Shown: in pieces, positions 25,784 through 37,297 of the stretch
Numbering within the stretch: position 1 is the first letter of the stretch
Layout of the letters: each line of letters opens with the position of its first letter
Assembly (NCBI GenBank): GCA_001771545.1
Contig: MEUC01000029.1
Coordinates: forward strand, 1,445-65,444
Direction: 5' to 3'
DNA from: a candidate division WOR-1 bacterium RIFOXYB2_FULL_42_35
Lineage (GTDB): Bacteria > Margulisbacteria > WOR-1 > O2-12-FULL-45-9
Length of the DNA stretch: 64,000 nucleotides
Translations under genes and position numbers: made by a program
Notes under the pieces: generated by a model
The model's input: only the letters and a program-made list of their open reading frames with translations
What the model was told of the DNA's origin: nothing
The model's database searches: none

Positions 25784-27001
25784 TTGATCGAGCACAAAAA
25801 ACAGGAGACCCCTGTGTTAAAGAAACTGTCCATTATTTTATTATTGATCTGTTTCAGTCTTCAAAGTGCTTTTGCCCTTTATGGAGCAAGGCCGATGGGC
25901 ATGGGCCAAGCTTTTACAGCTGTTGCTAACGATGCCAATGCTAGCCGCTGGAACCCGGCAGGATTAGCCTTAAATCCAGAAGTAGTTATTAATAGTTCAA
26001 CTATGGCCAATAATCGCAATCGTTGGGTTGGTGATAATCTTTTAAACCTCAAGATGTGTTATGAAACAGAAATGGATCCCTTTTCCTGGATTGCCGGTGT
26101 CGGTTTAGCTTCCCTGTTCGCCTATGAAGGAGCCAGATATTTGGGGGATAAAGGAATCTTAAAAAAGGGCTGGGGCAGATCAGGAACAAAGACAGAACGC
26201 GGCCAAGCCTTGATTACAGAAGGGACCGGAGAAGCTGTTAGCTTAAAAGCTAAATTAAACAGTACCGCCAATGTTGTTCTTAAGGATACCGATCAAGCTG
26301 TTAGATCAACCGCCAGAGAGGCGGCAGACAGGGCAAGATGGTACTATCTGACCCCCTGGGCCACCCCCTGGTACAACAATCGTAATCACTCCCAACCACG
26401 AGATAAACGAGGAAATCCTACCAAAACTAAAGCCCAATTTGCTCTGGGGCTTAGCTGGCTCAATGATTACAATCCTCCCAGTGATGAAAATGCCAACTGG
26501 TACACAATTACCGTTGCTTCTGGCTTTGAGAAAAGAGTTGCCGTTGGCGGAAATATTAATATCTATAACATGGAAAAAATTAGCTCTGGCATCAGGGGTA
26601 TCGGCGGTGACCTGGATATTGGGGTGATTGCTAAACCGGTTGAGTATCTTTCTTTTGGCCTGGTTTCTCAAGGTATTTTAACCACAGACATTACTTGGCA
26701 AAATGGCAGCACCAGCCGTTATGAAATGATCACTAATATTGGCCTTGCCATTGAACCGGTTCCTGCACTAACCTTAGCGGCAGACATGCACAATGTTCTC
26801 CATCAAAACAACAGTCAGCCAACCTATCATTACGGAGTAGAAGCTGCCCTAATGCCAGGATTAATTGCCCGGGCCGGGTTATCAGACGGGAGCAAAACTG
26901 CCGGCTTAAGCCTAATAATTGGCCGGCTCACCATTGATTATGCTTATTTAGGCGGCACCTATAACCGAACTCAAATGATTGGCGGCTCCTGGAGCCTATA
27001 A
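25784..27001 (+). CDS. Outer-membrane beta-barrel protein of the FadL/TodX (OMPP1) type.
   Basis: Signal peptide, then ALYGARPMGMGQAFTAVANDANASRWNPAGLA. This matches the FadL hatch-domain N-terminal motif. Confidence 0.6.
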   Translation: MIEHKKQETPVLKKLSIILLLICFSLQSAFALYGARPMGMGQAFTAVANDANASRWNPAGLALNPEVVINSSTMANNRNRWVGDNLLNLKMCYETEMDPFSWIAGVGLASLFAYEGARYLGDKGILKKGWGRSGTKTERGQALITEGTGEAVSLKAKLNSTANVVLKDTDQAVRSTAREAADRARWYYLTPWATPWYNNRNHSQPRDKRGNPTKTKAQFALGLSWLNDYNPPSDENANWYTITVASGFEKRVAVGGNINIYNMEKISSGIRGIGGDLDIGVIAKPVEYLSFGLVSQGILTTDITWQNGSTSRYEMITNIGLAIEPVPALTLAADMHNVLHQNNSQPTYHYGVEAALMPGLIARAGLSDGSKTAGLSLIIGRLTIDYAYLGGTYNRTQMIGGSWSL

Positions 27002-27002
27002 A

Positions 27003-28511
27003 ATGTTAAAAGATCTTCTTGACGTTAAACGACCAACTACCTGGGGGAATCTTCCTCGCCTCAATCATCATTTATGCAAAGAATGGATCACCACTAATTT
27101 TAAAGACATCTTAGAAACACTGCAAAACACCCCACCGGAAAACTTGGAACCATGGAATACTCTGGGTTTTGTTTGCATTGACAACAATCTCTACCAGGAA
27201 GCAGAAAAAATCTACGATGAATTATTTAAAAAAACCCAAAAGAAACATGGCAACATCGGACTGCCCGCCTACTTTCGCGGGATTGCTCATTTTCTTCAAG
27301 GCAGATTCCAAGACGCTTATAAAGACTTTAAGATGGCCAGACAATTTGAGATTCAGACTAAAAAAGTTAGTGGCACATCTTCACGAGCTATTGCCTATAT
27401 GGAAGAGACCCTTTTTCCTACCAGGGAAATAATCAAAAACAACCAAGCCAGGCTAATTAAAGATCTTAATAATCCCCGTAGCCTTGACCACAATATTGGA
27501 CCTAACATGCTCAGAACAATTCATAAATGGAACTCAGCCACTCCCCTTTTCTCTCACAGCATTTCCCAAGGCGGCGGCTATTTCCTTACTTTAAAAAATA
27601 AACATGGTCAAACCAAAGGGATTGCCATTGATCCTGGCTATGATTTTTTTGATATTTTTAGGGACACCGGCTTGGGCATTGCCGATATTGACGCCATAAT
27701 TATTACTCATGACCATGATGACCATACCGAGTCAGTGGAAGGAATTCTTTCTCTCCTGGCTAAATATAATGATCATAATGAACAAAAAAACACTAAAGTT
27801 CTGGATATCTTTGGTTCTTCCGGCACACTGCTTAAGTTTCACGGCCTGCTTTCAGCCACAGACCTATTTGGCAATCGGGAAATAAACTTCAAGCTCTTGG
27901 TTCCGGGTTCGGAAATCACTGAAATTGAGAATGTTTCTCTCCAAGAAAAACACGGCTTCACCCTGTCAATTAAGCCGGCTCATCATACCGAACGCTGGAC
28001 CAATCAAGAGTCTGCTGTTGGTTTGGTCATCCACACCAATATCCCGGACATTAAGAATGGCGGCCAACTAAACATAGGGATCACTGGAGACACTCGCTAC
28101 GAAGTTGGCATTGGCCGGGCTTACAAGGACTGTCAGGTTTTATTACTGAATATTGGTTCCGTAGAAAAAGAAGAAGGCAAATTTTTAAGCCAACATTTGG
28201 GCATGATTGGTTGTATCAACCTATTAAAAGAGGCCCGCTTAGACAAACATCTGTTGGCCATCCTAACTGAATTTGGCGAAGAGTTTTCCGGTAAGAGAGA
28301 TATTATCAGCCGCATCTTAGAAAACTGGGCCCAACCAATGGCCGGCAACAAACAAAAACAGTTACGGGTTATTCCTGCTGATGTACACCTAGAAGTTCGT
28401 CTGGAAGACTTAAATATCCGCGAAACAGAGACTAAGGTTTTCTTCCCTTATAATATGATTGAAATTGACGAGTCTGATCCGGAAATTTTGAAATACAAGT
28501 TTAATGGCTGA
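27003..28511 (+). CDS. MBL-fold metallo-hydrolase with an N-terminal TPR-like domain.
   Basis: IITHDHDDHTESVEG (HxHxDH) plus downstream His/Asp ligands. Confidence 0.7.
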   Translation: MLKDLLDVKRPTTWGNLPRLNHHLCKEWITTNFKDILETLQNTPPENLEPWNTLGFVCIDNNLYQEAEKIYDELFKKTQKKHGNIGLPAYFRGIAHFLQGRFQDAYKDFKMARQFEIQTKKVSGTSSRAIAYMEETLFPTREIIKNNQARLIKDLNNPRSLDHNIGPNMLRTIHKWNSATPLFSHSISQGGGYFLTLKNKHGQTKGIAIDPGYDFFDIFRDTGLGIADIDAIIITHDHDDHTESVEGILSLLAKYNDHNEQKNTKVLDIFGSSGTLLKFHGLLSATDLFGNREINFKLLVPGSEITEIENVSLQEKHGFTLSIKPAHHTERWTNQESAVGLVIHTNIPDIKNGGQLNIGITGDTRYEVGIGRAYKDCQVLLLNIGSVEKEEGKFLSQHLGMIGCINLLKEARLDKHLLAILTEFGEEFSGKRDIISRILENWAQPMAGNKQKQLRVIPADVHLEVRLEDLNIRETETKVFFPYNMIEIDESDPEILKYKFNG

Positions 28512-31155: not shown

Positions 31156-31366
31156 GTCTAACGGTTATTATATCAACCATTAATTAGAAGGACAAACAAA
31201 AAGCGCCCGGCTTTAGCTTTCAAATCCTGCAAGGGACTTACTCGCCAAAGCCAGGCTGTTTTTTATTCGTCCCCGATGTAACATCGGAAAACAGGAATAA
31301 GTCTTGGACTTAATTTTGCACGCTCTGCATTTCCGTAGAGATACAAACTCCGGCATCTTTAAGTAT

Positions 31367-31448
31367 TCGACCAGGTGAACCGCGTTGTTGTTATAACGAT
31401 TATCAGGGTTGTTGTTGTTGTTGCGGTTCGCGTTGTTCAGAGAACGCC
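31367..31448 (-). repeat. DGR template repeat (TR), adenine-rich on the minus strand with AAC codons.
   Basis: 82-bp match to 32845-32926 with 12 mismatches. All 12 are A in this copy (minus strand). Confidence 0.85.
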
Positions 31449-31460
31449 GGATTTACAGGC

Positions 31461-32456
31461 TTATCCCTTTATTAAAATATTAGAAAACAATTTTCTCCTT
31501 AGATGGAATGAATTGGCAAATACGGCGTACCCCAGCCAGCTTTGTATTGAGCAAGTAATCTTGGGTATGGACATTAAGTTGCTTTGAAAAAGGCTGATAT
31601 ATTTTCTCATTCTTATTTTAAAGCGCTTGACGTTTTCTTTGGCCACCAGCTTATGGCTGGGATAAACCTTATAGCCAAGAAACTTCACGCCGTTCTTAGT
31701 TGGATAGACCTGGCATTTATTAGCATGCAGTTGCAGCTTTAGCTTTTCAAGATAATCAGCAATTCTTTTTCTGGCCTGGTTTAGCTGTCCTTTATCATTA
31801 CCAAATACTATCAGGTCGTCCATATAACGGAGGTAAAACCGGCATTTAAGGTTTTCTTTTAAATAATGGTCTAACCCATTGAGATAAAGATTGGCAAATA
31901 TCTGGCTAGCTAAATTCCCAATCGGAATCCCAGGAGAAGGTGTTGAATCAATAATTAGTTTAATCAGCCAAAGAGCTTCCGGGTCTTTTATCTTATCCAT
32001 AATCATCCCGAGTAAGATTTCGTGATCTATGGAAGCAAAATAGTTTTTAACGTCGCACTTCAAAGCATATTTATTTTTGCGGCAATATACTTGAAACCGG
32101 CTAACAGCCCGATGGCTGCCTTTGCTTTTCCGGCAAGCGTAGGAATCGAAGATCAGCACCCGATCAAAAATGGGCTCAATGACATTGCAAAGTGCATGCT
32201 GGGCAACTCGATCTCGGTAAGGCAAGGCACTGATTAGTCTCTTTTTCGGATCATAGATATGGAATTGCTTGTAGTGACCAACCCGATATGTGTGGCTTTG
32301 GAGTTCTGCCTGAAGAGTAAAAATCTCTTTTTCAAAACCAAGATTAAAATCGCTGACAGGGGTTTTGAGCTTCTTGCCTCTCTGGGCCTTCCCGGCCGCT
32401 AAAAGGAGGTTCTCAAAAGAGCAGATTTTCTCATAAAGATTATGATGCCTTTTCAT
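31461..32456 (-). CDS. Diversity-generating-retroelement reverse transcriptase.
   Basis: RT motifs …RYMDDLIVFG… and the DGR-specific IPIGNLASQIFANLYLNGLD. Flanked by TR and VR. Confidence 0.85.
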   Translation of the reverse strand: MKRHHNLYEKICSFENLLLAAGKAQRGKKLKTPVSDFNLGFEKEIFTLQAELQSHTYRVGHYKQFHIYDPKKRLISALPYRDRVAQHALCNVIEPIFDRVLIFDSYACRKSKGSHRAVSRFQVYCRKNKYALKCDVKNYFASIDHEILLGMIMDKIKDPEALWLIKLIIDSTPSPGIPIGNLASQIFANLYLNGLDHYLKENLKCRFYLRYMDDLIVFGNDKGQLNQARKRIADYLEKLKLQLHANKCQVYPTKNGVKFLGYKVYPSHKLVAKENVKRFKIRMRKYISLFQSNLMSIPKITCSIQSWLGYAVFANSFHLRRKLFSNILIKG

Positions 32457-32778
32457 GTTTTAGCCAGCCCCCAACCTGGGAACCGATTTCCAAAAGATAT
32501 CGGGCAGCGAACTCATAGCTCTTAAGATTGATCAAACGCAGATCATGGCTAAGGCGAAACAGATAGCGCAGCTTTTCAATTTCAAGATTTGCGTTCTTAA
32601 GCGCATTAGTTTTGTCTTTGGAATATTGGGCTTCAATGAGAAGCTCCAACAGGCCAATTACTTTATTTTCGATTCTTTCTCCGAGGGTATATCTTTGATT
32701 GCGCGGGAACTTCGCAATGTGGGGGACGACCCATCTGAGGAAATCATAGGAACAGGTTACGACTTTTGGCCCTTCCAT
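32440..32778 (-). CDS. Probable DGR accessory variability determinant (Avd-like small helical protein).
   Basis: 112-aa helical ORF between the VR-bearing target and the RT. Overlaps the RT start by 17 nt. Confidence 0.5.
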   Translation of the reverse strand: MEGPKVVTCSYDFLRWVVPHIAKFPRNQRYTLGERIENKVIGLLELLIEAQYSKDKTNALKNANLEIEKLRYLFRLSHDLRLINLKSYEFAARYLLEIGSQVGGWLKHEKAS

Positions 32779-32837
32779 ATTATGCTAAAATTTTCCTTCC
32801 CCACCCCTAAAAAAGTAAAAGGATAAAGCTTAATTTA

Positions 32838-33500
32838 TTAGTCCTCGACCAGGTGAACCGCGCTGCTGCCATAACGATCATCAGGGCTGCTGCTGAAGTT
32901 GCGGTTCGCGTAGTACAGAGAACGCCAATAGTAGGTGTCACTCCCCTTGCTGCTTTCTACCAAAAACCAATTATTCCCTCTCAGTTTAGCTTTCACATCA
33001 GCTGGTAAAGCCACAAATTCAGCCTCAGTCATAAACCTAAACTTTCTGCCTCGTTCATTTGCTCCTTTAATATAGTTCTTCGCATCATCCACATTTAAAA
33101 ACGTCAATGTCTCTCCGCTCGGCTCTTTCAAGCGGTCCCGAAGCGCTTCCTTGTTATGGCCGCTAACTTTCTCTGGCTTTAAGAATTGTGCGGCTTCAGC
33201 GTCTGTTAATTCTCCTATCATTATTTTTTTATAAGTTTGCCCCTCAACATTAAGCATATGCGGGAAAATTGTCTCGGGCTGGACTATATCCACAAGTTCT
33301 ATTTGAATGGCAACAGGATCTCGCCTTTGAGCTAGTAGAGATGGGAGGTCAGCGACCTTGTCTTCTGGTCTAAAACCTGGTCCTTTATGACCTGCCAGTC
33401 TTTTTGCCATTGCCTCTACTTTGGCTTTGTCTGACACTCCATCACTGGCACGGACTAGAACAGAACCTAAACTCTTTTTATCAATCCTTAAAAAACTCAT
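32838..33500 (-). CDS. DGR variable (target) protein with a minimal C-type-lectin/FGE-like fold. The VR lies at the C-terminus.
   Basis: …RKFRFMTEAEFVA… then WRSLYYANRNFSSSPDDRYGSSAVHLVED, encoded by the VR. Confidence 0.75.
   Translation of the reverse strand: MSFLRIDKKSLGSVLVRASDGVSDKAKVEAMAKRLAGHKGPGFRPEDKVADLPSLLAQRRDPVAIQIELVDIVQPETIFPHMLNVEGQTYKKIMIGELTDAEAAQFLKPEKVSGHNKEALRDRLKEPSGETLTFLNVDDAKNYIKGANERGRKFRFMTEAEFVALPADVKAKLRGNNWFLVESSKGSDTYYWRSLYYANRNFSSSPDDRYGSSAVHLVED
32845..32926 (-). repeat. DGR variable repeat (VR).
   Basis: Pairs with the TR at 31367-31448. The substitutions A→G (8) and A→T (4) all fall at TR adenines. Confidence 0.85.
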
Positions 33501-33588
33501 TCATCTTCCTCCTCGCATTGCCCTTGTTAAACCTGGCGGGCTTTGCTAATATATATATCGTAAGGTTTTTTAAGAAATTTCAGTTTAT

Positions 33589-33897
33589 TTGAAAATAGTT
33601 TTGGGAGGAGAAGGCATGGTGCCAAAAAAAGAACTTAACACGGCAGTTAAACTCGCCAAAGAATACGGTGTGGGAAAATTGTATTTGTTTGGGTCTTCTT
33701 TGCATAAAAAATCCAGCGCAGTGAACGATTACGACTTCGCCGTAGCAGGCATCGCCCCTTCCAGGTTCTTTGCGTTTTATGGCAAATTATTTAGGGCTTT
33801 AAGCAAACCCGTCGATCTTGTCGATCTTTCGGAAAAATCTCTTTTTAATTCTCTCATAATAAGGGAAGGGAAGAAAATCTATGATAAATCTTCCTGA
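33589..33897 (+). CDS. Minimal nucleotidyltransferase (MntA-like antitoxin).
   Basis: GKLYLFGSSLHKKSSAVNDYDFAV matches the pol-beta NTase motif GS…D.D. Its 3' end overlaps the following HEPN gene. Confidence 0.65.
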   Translation: MKIVLGGEGMVPKKELNTAVKLAKEYGVGKLYLFGSSLHKKSSAVNDYDFAVAGIAPSRFFAFYGKLFRALSKPVDLVDLSEKSLFNSLIIREGKKIYDKSS

Positions 33898-34297
33898 GAA
33901 AATTTCCGCAGAAATAGACAATATAGAAAAATCCCTGGCCAATCTTTCCTCGCCCCTAAAGAAAAAGAAGAAATCAATTATAGAAATAGCGGGGATGGCC
34001 GCTTTCATCCAAAACATTTACAATGGTATCGAAAACATTTTAAAACAAATATTGAAGTCCAAAAACGTTTCTGTTGCTCACCCTGAAATATGGCACAAGG
34101 AATTACTGGAAAAATCAGTTAAAAACAACATCATCCCCGACGAGCTGGCCGAAGCACTTTACGAGTATCTCACCTTCAGGCATTTTTTTATCCATTCTTA
34201 TAGTTTTATGCTGGACAAAAAAAAAGTAGTTGCGCTGGCAAACAACATAAACAAGCTTTGGCAAAAGTTTTTAGGAGAAATAAAACCTTACCGGTAA
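33881..34297 (+). CDS. HEPN-domain (HepT-like) toxin.
   Basis: The R-x4-H motif in …[10 protein letters not shown]…. Confidence 0.6.

Positions 34298-35666: not shown

Positions 35667-37289
<1,623 letters not shown>

Positions 37290-37297
<8 letters not shown>

Follow-up and report, generated by a model that had tools for sequence, protein, structure and literature searches.

The diversity-generating retroelement (DGR) of Bordetella phage BPP-1, with the gene order mtd-avd-TR-brt, is the prototype of these elements. A GC-rich hairpin downstream of the variable region (VR) is common among DGRs, and is not universal. Such DNA hairpins or cruciforms are located 4-34 bp past the VR (Guo et al. 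2011); in BPP-1 the structure is required for efficient homing, and a residual level of homing persists independently of it (PMC3240598). DGR reverse transcriptases (RTs) carry the signature [I/V/L]GxxxSQ, where group II and retroviral RTs have QGxxxSP (PMC7826257). About 31,000 DGRs have been catalogued (figure quoted in bioRxiv 10.1101/2023.10.23.563531). The published description of the 'RT motifs', among them RT-14, assigned no function to RT-14 and made the link to DGRs for RT-10 only (Weinberg et al. 2017).

A DGR was found in the genome of a candidate division WOR-1 (Saganbacteria) bacterium from Rifle aquifer groundwater, within a window (the whole stretch of DNA that was analysed) of 64,000 nucleotides. 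Saganbacteria are a little-studied lineage, sibling of Cyanobacteria, and no link of DGRs to WOR-1 or Saganbacteria was found in the literature searched. The locus is almost certainly a complete chromosomal DGR, organized as target(VR)-avd-RT-TR (TR, template region), because adenine-only mismatches, a DGR-type RT, an Avd protein, a VR at the C-terminus of a C-type-lectin fold and a structured RNA flanking the TR occur together. Nearly all defining features of DGRs that were tested are present, the exception being the GC-rich hairpin downstream of the VR. All components lie on the minus strand, in the layout (avd-RT-TR) of architecture B2 of Wu et al. 2018 (PMC5758913). The protein-coding part of the cassette and its repeats are:

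32838..33500, minus strand: target (variable protein) gene, 220 aa, with the VR at its C-terminus
32844..32926, minus strand: VR, which makes up the final ~27 codons of the target gene, with 12 (+1) mismatches to the TR
32779..32843, minus strand: spacer between VR and avd, which includes a candidate 3' boundary that is IMH-like (GGACTAATAAATTAAGC...) and, by alignment, is conserved in the sister DGRs L011 and L012
32440..32778, minus strand: avd accessory gene, 112 aa, its 3' end overlapping the RT start by 17 nt
31461..32456, minus strand: DGR RT, 331 aa, with RVT_1 at 7.5e-26, IGNLASQ at residues 179-185 and YMDD at residues 211-214
31366..31448, minus strand: TR, 83 nt, non-coding, with 29 adenines and 12 Asn codons in the VR frame

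A prophage setting was ruled out by the neighbouring genes (femAB, murE, serS, cysS and a GATase gene). Two plus-strand open reading frames, of 70 aa over the TR (31375-31587) and of 51 aa over the VR (32853-33008), were rejected as antisense artefacts of the repeat.

A preliminary description of this DNA had reported an 82-nt repeat (31367-31448 and 32845-32926, both on the minus strand) with 12 mismatches, at each of which the 31.4-kb copy has A and the VR copy has G (eight times) or T (four times). Gap-free realignment gave exactly these 12 mismatches, with A in the 31.4-kb copy at all of them and none at a non-adenine template position. The translations given earlier for the TR (RSLNNANRNNNNNPDNRYNNNAVHLV) and the VR (RSLYYANRNFSSSPDDRYGSSAVHLV) were reproduced, and the construction of the 31.4-kb copy from Asn (AAC) codons and the position of the VR at the C-terminus of the 220-aa open reading frame also held. 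In that frame, each of the 12 mismatches affects the first or second position of an Asn codon (AAC, with a single AAT), and ten of the 12 Asn codons of the TR are changed in the VR. A 13th mismatch, A-to-G at 31366 of the TR (32844 of the VR), is silent (GAA to GAG); the first non-adenine mismatch, at 31365 (T in the TR, G in the VR), marks the 3' limit of the transferred sequence. A degenerate pattern with N at each TR adenine matched only the TR and the VR in the window (0 matches expected in 100 shuffles), and with up to 3 mismatches allowed it detected no further VR or target there. Up to 12 Asn codons and four other A-containing codons are open to rewriting, the theoretical repertoire is about 1e16 to 4e16 proteins, and no A-containing TR codon can yield a stop codon by adenine mutation. 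On the evidence of the alignment, the adenine-only differences are a record of past retrohoming.

The two genes between the repeats are what they had been taken for. The Avd-sized product scores 110 bits against the NCBIfam equivalog NF033474 DivGenRetAVD (cutoff 80) and 74 bits (1.2e-20) against Pfam PF22296 bAvd (cutoff 40), and the RT with its YMDD and DGR-specific IGNLASQ motifs was confirmed. Its top match in the PDB is the Bordetella bRT, 8ub7_A (328 aa), aligned at full length with 227 bits and an E-value of 4.4e-66, whereas group II RTs match at 1.6e-20 or weaker and group II and retron RTs reach at most 77 bits. Residues I181, G182, Q187, R74 and K29 of 8ub7_A agree with the bRT numbering of Handa et al., and R73 and I179 of the window RT are the conserved equivalents of bRT R74 and I181. 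Twenty-four relatives of the RT (29-50% identity) have adenine-biased TR/VR pairs of their own, and the closest relatives also have the RT-then-TR order. Motif, PDB matches and the TR/VR pairs of relatives thus place the predicted RT in the DGR clade. The dN/dS values of the RT (0.08 versus L012), Avd (0.16-0.19 versus L011 and L012) and the target scaffold (0.29) indicate purifying selection on all three.

Origins of the locus other than a DGR were weighed against these data. An RT from some other retroelement (group II intron, retron or defence system) might lie beside an unrelated partial duplication of a gene 3' end, and NCBIfam, which has no DGR RT model, does match the RT only to group II intron, Drt and retron models; all of these matches are far below their cutoffs, the best at 147 bits against 300. 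Such an origin is extremely improbable, since the bRT match extends over the full length and is three times stronger than that of any group II RT, the 331-aa protein lacks a maturase or endonuclease extension and has IGxxxSQ rather than QGxxxSP, avd adjoins and overlaps the RT gene, the mismatches are confined to adenines, and the Rfam search showed no intron or retron RNA. With Avd and the TR/VR pairs of the relatives added, the group II intron or retron reading was dismissed, and a grouping with non-DGR RTs, which the preliminary description had proposed to check, is not supported. Nor is it credible that a duplication followed by ordinary point mutation and selection, without reverse transcription, produced the A-to-G and A-to-T differences: nothing specific favours this origin, eight of the 12 changes being A-to-G transitions, but all 13 differences fall at the adenines of one copy (P = 3.7e-7 that 12 random mismatches all hit A; hypergeometric, 28 A in the 82-nt TR), none is at position 3 within AAC codons, the unchanged copy is non-coding and rich in Asn codons like all DGR TRs, and the identical pattern is found beside the 24 related RTs.

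The target protein is unusually small (220 aa), and neither a signal peptide nor a transmembrane segment was found in it. Residues ~75-220 form a compact predicted C-type-lectin fold of the FGE-sulfatase type (~146 residues), preceded by ~74 residues of low-confidence structure that are confined to a family of modest size, with 115 clusters at 50% identity among 1.84 billion representatives. A Pfam search that included PF03781 (FGE-sulfatase) gave zero hits at E <= 0.01; transitive homology and the fold suggest that the protein belongs to the FGE-sulfatase superfamily. Its close relatives comprise four clusters from a word-indexed search and one locus from a metagenome scan. Two sister sequences (L011 and L012) end before their TRs, which excluded TR-to-TR comparison within the subfamily, and two target homologues (L009 and L010) have lost the DGR entirely.

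A structured RNA flanking the template, absent from the preliminary description, is a relative of Rfam RT-14. Its parts are:

31457..31468, minus strand: 5' strand of a TR-bracketing duplex, made of AGGGAUAAG (across the RT stop codon) and CU, 7 nt before the TR
31308..31364, minus strand: RNA helices P1 (31359-31364 with 31308-31313) and P2 (31324-31347)
31293..31304, minus strand: 3' strand of the duplex that brackets the TR (CUUAUUCCU plus AG), equal to the 'UUAUUCC' linker conserved in the RT-14 motif
31257..31292, minus strand: P3 hairpin (31269-31292) and A-rich tract (GAAUAAAAAACA, 31257-31268)
31192..31256, minus strand: long hairpin P4 (31205-31256), with a conserved AGUA/GAA internal loop, then a U-run
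31205..31365, minus strand: match to Rfam RF02921 (RT-14 RNA), 38.4 bits, E 5.5e-4, model positions 1-144 of 144

The RF02921 score falls short of the Rfam gathering score of 48.1. In the DGR of Desulfosporosinus acididurans (L022), RT-14 is matched at 60.6 bits by the RNA that adjoins the TR on its 3' side, and a covariance model (R1) also matches seven other DGRs. MAFFT with RNAalifold gave a poor structure for the RNA 3' of the TR and was therefore replaced by a hand-annotated single-sequence covariance model. In the alignment of eight DGRs, 93% of cells are paired, versus 62% in shuffles and at most 50% in slid controls, and 41 of 44 pairs show compensatory change, including nine of nine in P2, nine of ten in P3 and 12 of 13 in P4. 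The predicted structure flanking the TR is thus supported by covariation across the eight DGRs, and its structural homology to the above-threshold RT-14 RNA of L022 has support from model R1 and from the covariation.

P1 starts immediately past the last transferred base (31366). P2 has a 9-bp stem with one C.A mismatch and a C(UACG)G loop, fits the published description of a 9-bp stem-loop with flipped-out bases and a UNCG/GNRA tetraloop just downstream of the TR, and by analogy is a candidate Avd-binding stem-loop. GAAUAAAAAAC comes after P3. The minimum free energy fold has a z-score of -4.8 at P4, whose AGUA/GAA internal loop is in our reading loop-E-like; the DGR transcript probably has its 3' end or terminator at P4 and the U-run, and a promoter-like site for femAB lies past them (31195-31167). 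The core of the TR-bracketing duplex pairs 31460-31468 with 31293-31301, RNAduplex extending this to 31457-31468 with 31293-31304. A counterpart of 9-12 bp with compensatory changes is present near the TR 5' end in eight of eight related DGRs; among the seven with a known TR start it lies 4-13 nt upstream in five and overlaps the TR start by 1-5 nt in the other two (L013 and L022). The duplex is the counterpart of the 'cPRT Stop duplex' of Handa et al.

TR/VR homology runs 12 nt beyond 31366, with five mismatches of which three are at non-adenine TR positions, and the VR-side sequence (GAGGACTAATAAATTAAGC) is kept in L011 and L012. No (GC)14 IMH element like that of BPP-1 is present at this locus, and no GC-rich hairpin or cruciform was found in the spacer between the VR and avd, where the DNA folds are no better than those of shuffles (z +0.4 and +1.2). 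The sister element L012 has a 26-nt insertion at the spacer that forms a 7-bp GC stem with a GGCA loop. L011 is without the hairpin as well, and its VR differs from the window VR. Sister elements with and without a VR-proximal GC hairpin offer a natural test of the role of the hairpin.

The claim that the locus can diversify a ligand-binding protein stands as a statement of capacity. The capacity for diversification is well supported by the components and the adenine-only record; ongoing activity is not, as the VR is invariant at the consensus level. Six independent public assemblies cover the VR (L001-L005 and L007), and all have the same VR, as do the two members of the 90% protein cluster, though one of these has two substitutions elsewhere, so that the heterogeneity among strains that had been proposed as a check was not seen. 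The compared assemblies are near-clonal (100% identity across the cassette), and the comparison is of consensus sequences, which mask minor variants. Activity in the sampled population appears low or episodic, and because the VR is identical across assemblies the claim made here covers capacity rather than demonstrated current activity. The invariant VR does not refute the identity of the DGR, because it differs from the TR only at adenines.

It is possible, though rather unlikely, that this is a real DGR now frozen or strongly attenuated after past diversification of its VR, either through loss of efficient target recognition (such as loss of a VR-proximal GC hairpin) or through silencing of the element, so that in the population sampled the VR acts like any fixed segment of a gene. 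No change in the VR is seen in six assemblies from different samples or across a 15-billion-protein collection, the 26-nt hairpin segment of L012 is missing from the otherwise conserved spacer, the DGR has been wholly lost next to the target homologues L009 and L010, and 25-50% of metagenome DGRs give no sign of recent activity (PMC8144416). Against this, the RT, Avd and TR are intact, with catalytic and adenine-mutagenesis residues conserved, dN/dS of the RT and Avd well below 1 and 12 uninterrupted Asn codons kept in the TR; L011, also lacking the hairpin, has a VR unlike that of the window; BPP-1 retains hairpin-independent residual homing (PMC3240598); and near-clonal assemblies imply that little time has elapsed. 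A more specific proposal, of doubtful standing, is that the DGR is naturally attenuated by the 26-nt indel and, separately, that RT-14 is the 'Sp'-type template-flanking RNA of a whole DGR subclade. If true, retrohoming would be switched on or off in nature by an indel that removes a GRNA-capped GC hairpin retained in L012, which would account for a VR fixed in all public assemblies while the RT, Avd, TR and flanking RNA stay under purifying selection, and RT-14 RNA would work equally well on either side of the RT gene.

For the complete DGR preferred here, the mechanism as a whole is modelled on homology to the Bordetella phage DGR. Transcription of the operon, on the minus strand, would start upstream of 33500 and end at P4 and the following U-run (~31200), and the 3' part of the transcript (the end of the RT open reading frame, the TR and ~165 nt of structured RNA) would fold so that a 9-11 bp duplex brackets the TR and the 9-bp UACG-capped stem-loop recruits the Avd-RT complex. 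The RT may prime itself from the RNA just 3' of the TR, where P1 abuts 31366, and would copy the TR into cDNA with misincorporation opposite adenines. The cDNA would then take the place of the VR in the 3'-terminal part of the target gene, and the rewritten codons are predicted to map to the ligand-binding face of the compact C-type-lectin domain. By the same analogy we infer the priming site, the direction and extent of the cDNA, the integration mechanism and current activity.

This is an ordinary DGR whose class, architecture and fold are already established, and it leaves the understanding of DGRs unchanged; it adds a fully dissected DGR for Saganbacteria (WOR-1). Its accessory gene, RT and TR have the same order, on one strand, as in architecture B2 (Wu, Gingery et al. 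2018; PMC5758913), and no difference in cassette layout was found. Compared with the FGE-sulfatase-type (PF03781) DGR proteins such as TvpA of Treponema denticola, the target has a smaller domain (~146 versus ~250 residues), falls below the Pfam threshold, has no lipoprotein signal or signal peptide and adds an uncharacterised N-terminal region of ~74 aa. The flanking RNA resembles RT-14 (RF02921) in P1, P2 with a UAxG loop, the UUAUUCC linker, a small hairpin, the A-rich tract, the long hairpin with AGUA...GAA and alignment over all 144 positions, and it occupies the same place, immediately 3' of the TR, as RT-14 in L022. The analysis allows the orphan Rfam motif RT-14 to be placed with DGRs, as the RNA that directly follows the TR, and its covarying TR-bracketing duplex agrees with the cryo-EM architecture of the Bordetella element.

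The window element differs from that of BPP-1 in being chromosomal and cellular rather than phage-borne, in having a TR of 83 nt rather than 134 nt, and in lacking both the (GC)14 IMH and a GC hairpin or cruciform after the VR. Its order is avd-RT-TR where BPP-1 has avd-TR-RT, so the TR is preceded in the RNA by the 3' end of the RT open reading frame and not by that of avd. The flanking RNA matches RT-14, whereas the motif of BPP-1 is RT-10 (PMC5737381), and the target is a soluble 220-aa protein, whereas that of BPP-1 is a trimeric tail-fibre tip. The two elements share adenine-specific transfer from TR to VR; Avd with an RT of ~330 aa, bRT aligning at full length with 227 bits and its K29, F66, R74, I76, I181, G182 and Q187 being conserved in the window RT; a VR at the C-terminus of a protein with a C-type-lectin fold; and an RNA 3' of the TR with a tetraloop stem-loop of ~9 bp, a TR-bracketing duplex and an A-rich tract.

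The preliminary description of this locus, a complete diversity-generating retroelement (DGR) at 31367-33500, was correct in all particulars. Its genes are as follows.

32838-33500, minus strand: target gene, a 220-aa ORF with the variable region (VR) at its C-terminus
32440-32778, minus strand: avd (accessory variability determinant), 112 aa, with matches to NF033474 and PF22296
31461-32456, minus strand: reverse transcriptase (RT) gene, 331 aa, RVT_1 reverse transcriptase

Re-alignment of 31367-31448 with 32845-32926 on the minus strand reproduced the claimed repeat of 82 nt, ungapped and with exactly 12 mismatches, at all of which the 31.4-kb copy (the template repeat, TR) has A and the 32.9-kb copy (the VR) has G (eight times) or T (four times), as had been reported. 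Every mismatch is at the first or second base of an Asn codon (11 AAC and one AAT) in the frame of the ORF at 32838-33500, in keeping with the AAC-codon composition ascribed to the 31.4-kb copy and with the 32.9-kb copy being the C-terminus of a 220-aa protein. The TR contains 28 adenines in 82 nt, and the probability that 12 randomly placed mismatches would all fall on them is 3.7e-7. Tabulation by template base gave no mismatch at a non-adenine position within the 82 nt; a thirteenth A-to-G difference is found one base further (31366 versus 32844; GAA to GAG, silent), and the adjacent position, 31365, is the first difference not at an adenine. A search pattern with N at every template adenine matched nothing in the 64-kb window besides these two copies (0 expected from 100 shuffles). 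The computed repertoire of the TR is approximately 4e16 protein variants, with stop codons unreachable. A 7-bp inverted repeat within the TR (GAACCGC/GCGGTTC; 31422-31428 and 31377-31383, minus strand) flanks the AAC-codon run in the minimum free energy fold, and the same pair is present in the VR.

The ORF between the repeats that had been described as Avd-sized scores 110 bits with NF033474 (cutoff 80) and 74 bits with PF22296 (cutoff 40), and the RT possesses both motifs claimed for it: YMDD, and the DGR signature [I/V/L]GxxxSQ in the form IGNLASQ. Affiliation of this RT with group II introns or retrons was tested by similarity: the best-matching solved structure is 8ub7_A (328 aa, labelled 'reverse transcriptase', in nine entries), which aligns end-to-end at 4.4e-66 and 227 bits, versus at most 77 bits for group II intron RTs and 63 bits for retron RTs. 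NCBIfam offers no DGR RT model, and its group II, Drt and retron models match the window RT far below their cutoffs. Because 8ub7_A carries the exact residues, identically numbered, that Handa et al. discussed for the RT of the Bordetella phage BPP-1 DGR, bRT (I181, G182, Q187, R74, F66, I76 and K29), we take it to be bRT. All of the counterparts are kept in the window RT (I179, G180, Q185, R73, F65, I75 and K28), including those of the two bRT residues that promote adenine mutagenesis, R74 and I181 (Handa et al.). When one genome per species was scanned, RT relatives at 50% identity or less were found in 42 loci, and a simple self-BLAST screen showed that 24 of these have TR/VR pairs in which adenines of one copy account for 80% or more of the mismatches; in the closest relatives (L013, L014, L015, L020, L023, L026 and L029) the TR is directly downstream of the RT, as in the window. 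Comparison with two sister DGRs (L012 and L011) indicates purifying selection on the RT (dN/dS 0.08), Avd (0.16-0.19) and the target scaffold (0.29).

The RNA flanking the TR is a feature absent from the preliminary description. The 210 nt that separate the TR from femAB fold far better than shuffled sequences (z -4.8), with the following elements.

31359-31364 with 31308-31313, minus strand: helix P1, beginning directly after the last transferred base
31324-31347, minus strand: helix P2, 9 bp long including a single C.A mismatch, capped by a C(UACG)G loop
31293-31301, minus strand: conserved UUAUUCC linker, after P2
31269-31292, minus strand: helix P3, then GAAUAAAAAAC
31205-31256, minus strand: helix P4, with a conserved AGUA/GAA internal loop, then a U-run

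Beyond the U-run is a promoter-like site for femAB. The linker pairs with AGGGAUAAG (31460-31468), located 7 nt upstream of the TR and across the RT stop codon. An equivalent 9-12 bp duplex of differing sequence is found near the TR 5' end in eight of eight loci; of seven loci with a known TR start, five have it 4-13 nt upstream, and it overlaps the TR by 1-5 nt in L013 and in L022, the DGR of Desulfosporosinus acididurans. A covariance model, built from the window sequence alone with a hand-drawn structure, found homologous RNAs that immediately follow the TR in L014, L013, L037, L015, L020, L029 and L022. In the resulting alignment, which was fitted to the model and includes three weak or spurious rows, 93% of cells pair (62% when shuffled, at most 50% with slid partners) and 41 of 44 pairs show compensatory changes.

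At a relaxed threshold, the single Rfam match is RF02921 (RT-14), covering the full model length at 31205-31365 on the minus strand with 38.4 bits (E 5.5e-4), below the gathering score of 48.1 bits. In D. acididurans (NZ_LDZY01000004.1; L022 3809-3951) an RT-14 match that passes the threshold, with 60.6 bits, is located between TR and RT, directly at the 3' side of the TR. RT-1 to RT-19 are motifs found near RT genes, of which Weinberg et al. tied only RT-10 to a DGR (BPP-1), speculating that others may be DGR parts (PMC5737381). Because its above-threshold copy adjoins a TR, the published orphan RT-14 is a DGR template-flanking RNA.

The target protein has no sequence match in Pfam, NCBIfam or PDB, and its close family is tiny (four 90% clusters among 5.8 billion proteins). 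A profile search of 1.84 billion representatives yielded 115 clusters, mostly of 170-250-aa proteins; among 60 aligned relatives, 43 have C-terminal R....AVRLVED and 29 match PF03781 (FGE-sulfatase). An AlphaFold2 model built on the relatives' alignment has pLDDT above 95 for residues 80-220 and is poor for residues 1-74; Foldseek against PDB gave weak matches only. On the strength of the PF03781 matches and the confident model, the target is a compact C-type-lectin domain of the FGE type, with the VR forming its C-terminus. Such domains are the commonest kind of DGR target. No hydrophobic segment was found (maximum Kyte-Doolittle 0.84 over 19 residues), and therefore no signal peptide or membrane anchor is evident from the sequence. 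Two target homologues of 50-58% identity (L009 718-1578 and L010 394-1134) have no avd or RT alongside; the 3' neighbours are a HEPN/nucleotidyltransferase pair at L009 and dnaX at the other, and their former VR segments have drifted, one with an insertion.

The host belongs to candidate division WOR-1 (Saganbacteria) of Rifle groundwater, and the RT is encoded on 21 contigs. VR heterogeneity across strains was sought, and none appeared at the consensus level: the VR is exactly alike in all six independent assemblies that cover it (L001-L005 and L007). The target protein is identical in four GenBank MAGs, and the sole other member of its 90% cluster differs by two residues outside the VR. Because the cassette is 100% identical across the compared assemblies, they represent a single near-clonal population, and minor variants are masked in consensus sequences; hence the comparison gives no evidence of ongoing diversification, which is distinct from evidence of inactivity. 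Recent activity was likewise not seen for 25-50% of DGRs surveyed by Roux et al. (PMC8144416).

The left DGR junction is polymorphic. The window, L001 and L003 have an MNT-HepT toxin-antitoxin pair there (33589-34297), whereas two independent assemblies, GCA_001772455.1 and ENA ERZ28563792, have in common another sequence (leuD/leuB side, 100% identical between the two) upstream of approximately 33570 (L002 1-4226, L005 1-262; junction at approximately 33570-33600); the DGR and right flank are otherwise identical. Two such nucleotidyltransferase/HEPN modules are less than 5 kb from the DGR (33589-34297, plus strand; 36959-37297, minus strand). A 50-nt imperfect inverted repeat (34930-34979/35001-35050; 70% complementary, 21-nt spacer) is located between glutamine amidotransferase and Zn-ribbon genes. 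Beside murE, a 510-aa protein (26979-28511, plus strand) has a metallo-beta-lactamase fold (Lactamase_B_2), faint TPR matches and a weak precomputed match to Anti-Pycsar Apyc1.

By homology, RT-Avd would be bound by the RNA segment that runs from the end of the RT ORF up to and including P4, and this RNA would prime cDNA synthesis in cis at the 3' boundary of the TR. The RT would misincorporate opposite adenines, the TR-bracketing duplex would halt synthesis on reaching the 5' end of the TR, and the VR would be replaced by the cDNA. The sequence analysis itself establishes the components, their conservation, covariation and purifying selection, and the adenine-only record carried by the VR; the priming site, integration and present activity are inferred.

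The genome became public in 2016, and a literature search found no paper connecting DGRs with WOR-1 or Saganbacteria; the DGR class has approximately 31,000 catalogued members (bioRxiv 10.1101/2023.10.23.563531). Modestly new are the assignment of RT-14 and a hairpin indel between sister elements. The spacer between VR and avd is otherwise conserved, but in L012 (245-275, against window 32800-32810) it contains a 26-nt insertion that forms a GC-rich 7-bp stem capped by a GGCA (GRNA) loop; the window and L011 lack this hairpin. It is of the same kind as the hairpin/cruciform needed for efficient homing in BPP-1 (PMC3240598), and the indel may be relevant to activity. The fold, accessory gene, RT motifs and RNA plan are all canonical for DGRs, and the order target-avd-RT-TR is that of architecture B2 of Wu et al. 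2018 (PMC5758913). The RNA features that Handa et al. described for the Bordetella DGR, and for 207 of 278 other DGRs that contain Avd, include a stem-loop immediately 3' of the TR that binds Avd (commonly 9 bp long, with bases flipped out and capped by UNCG or GNRA) and a 'cPRT Stop' duplex joining sequences upstream and downstream of the TR. The features of the window RNA agree with that description point for point.
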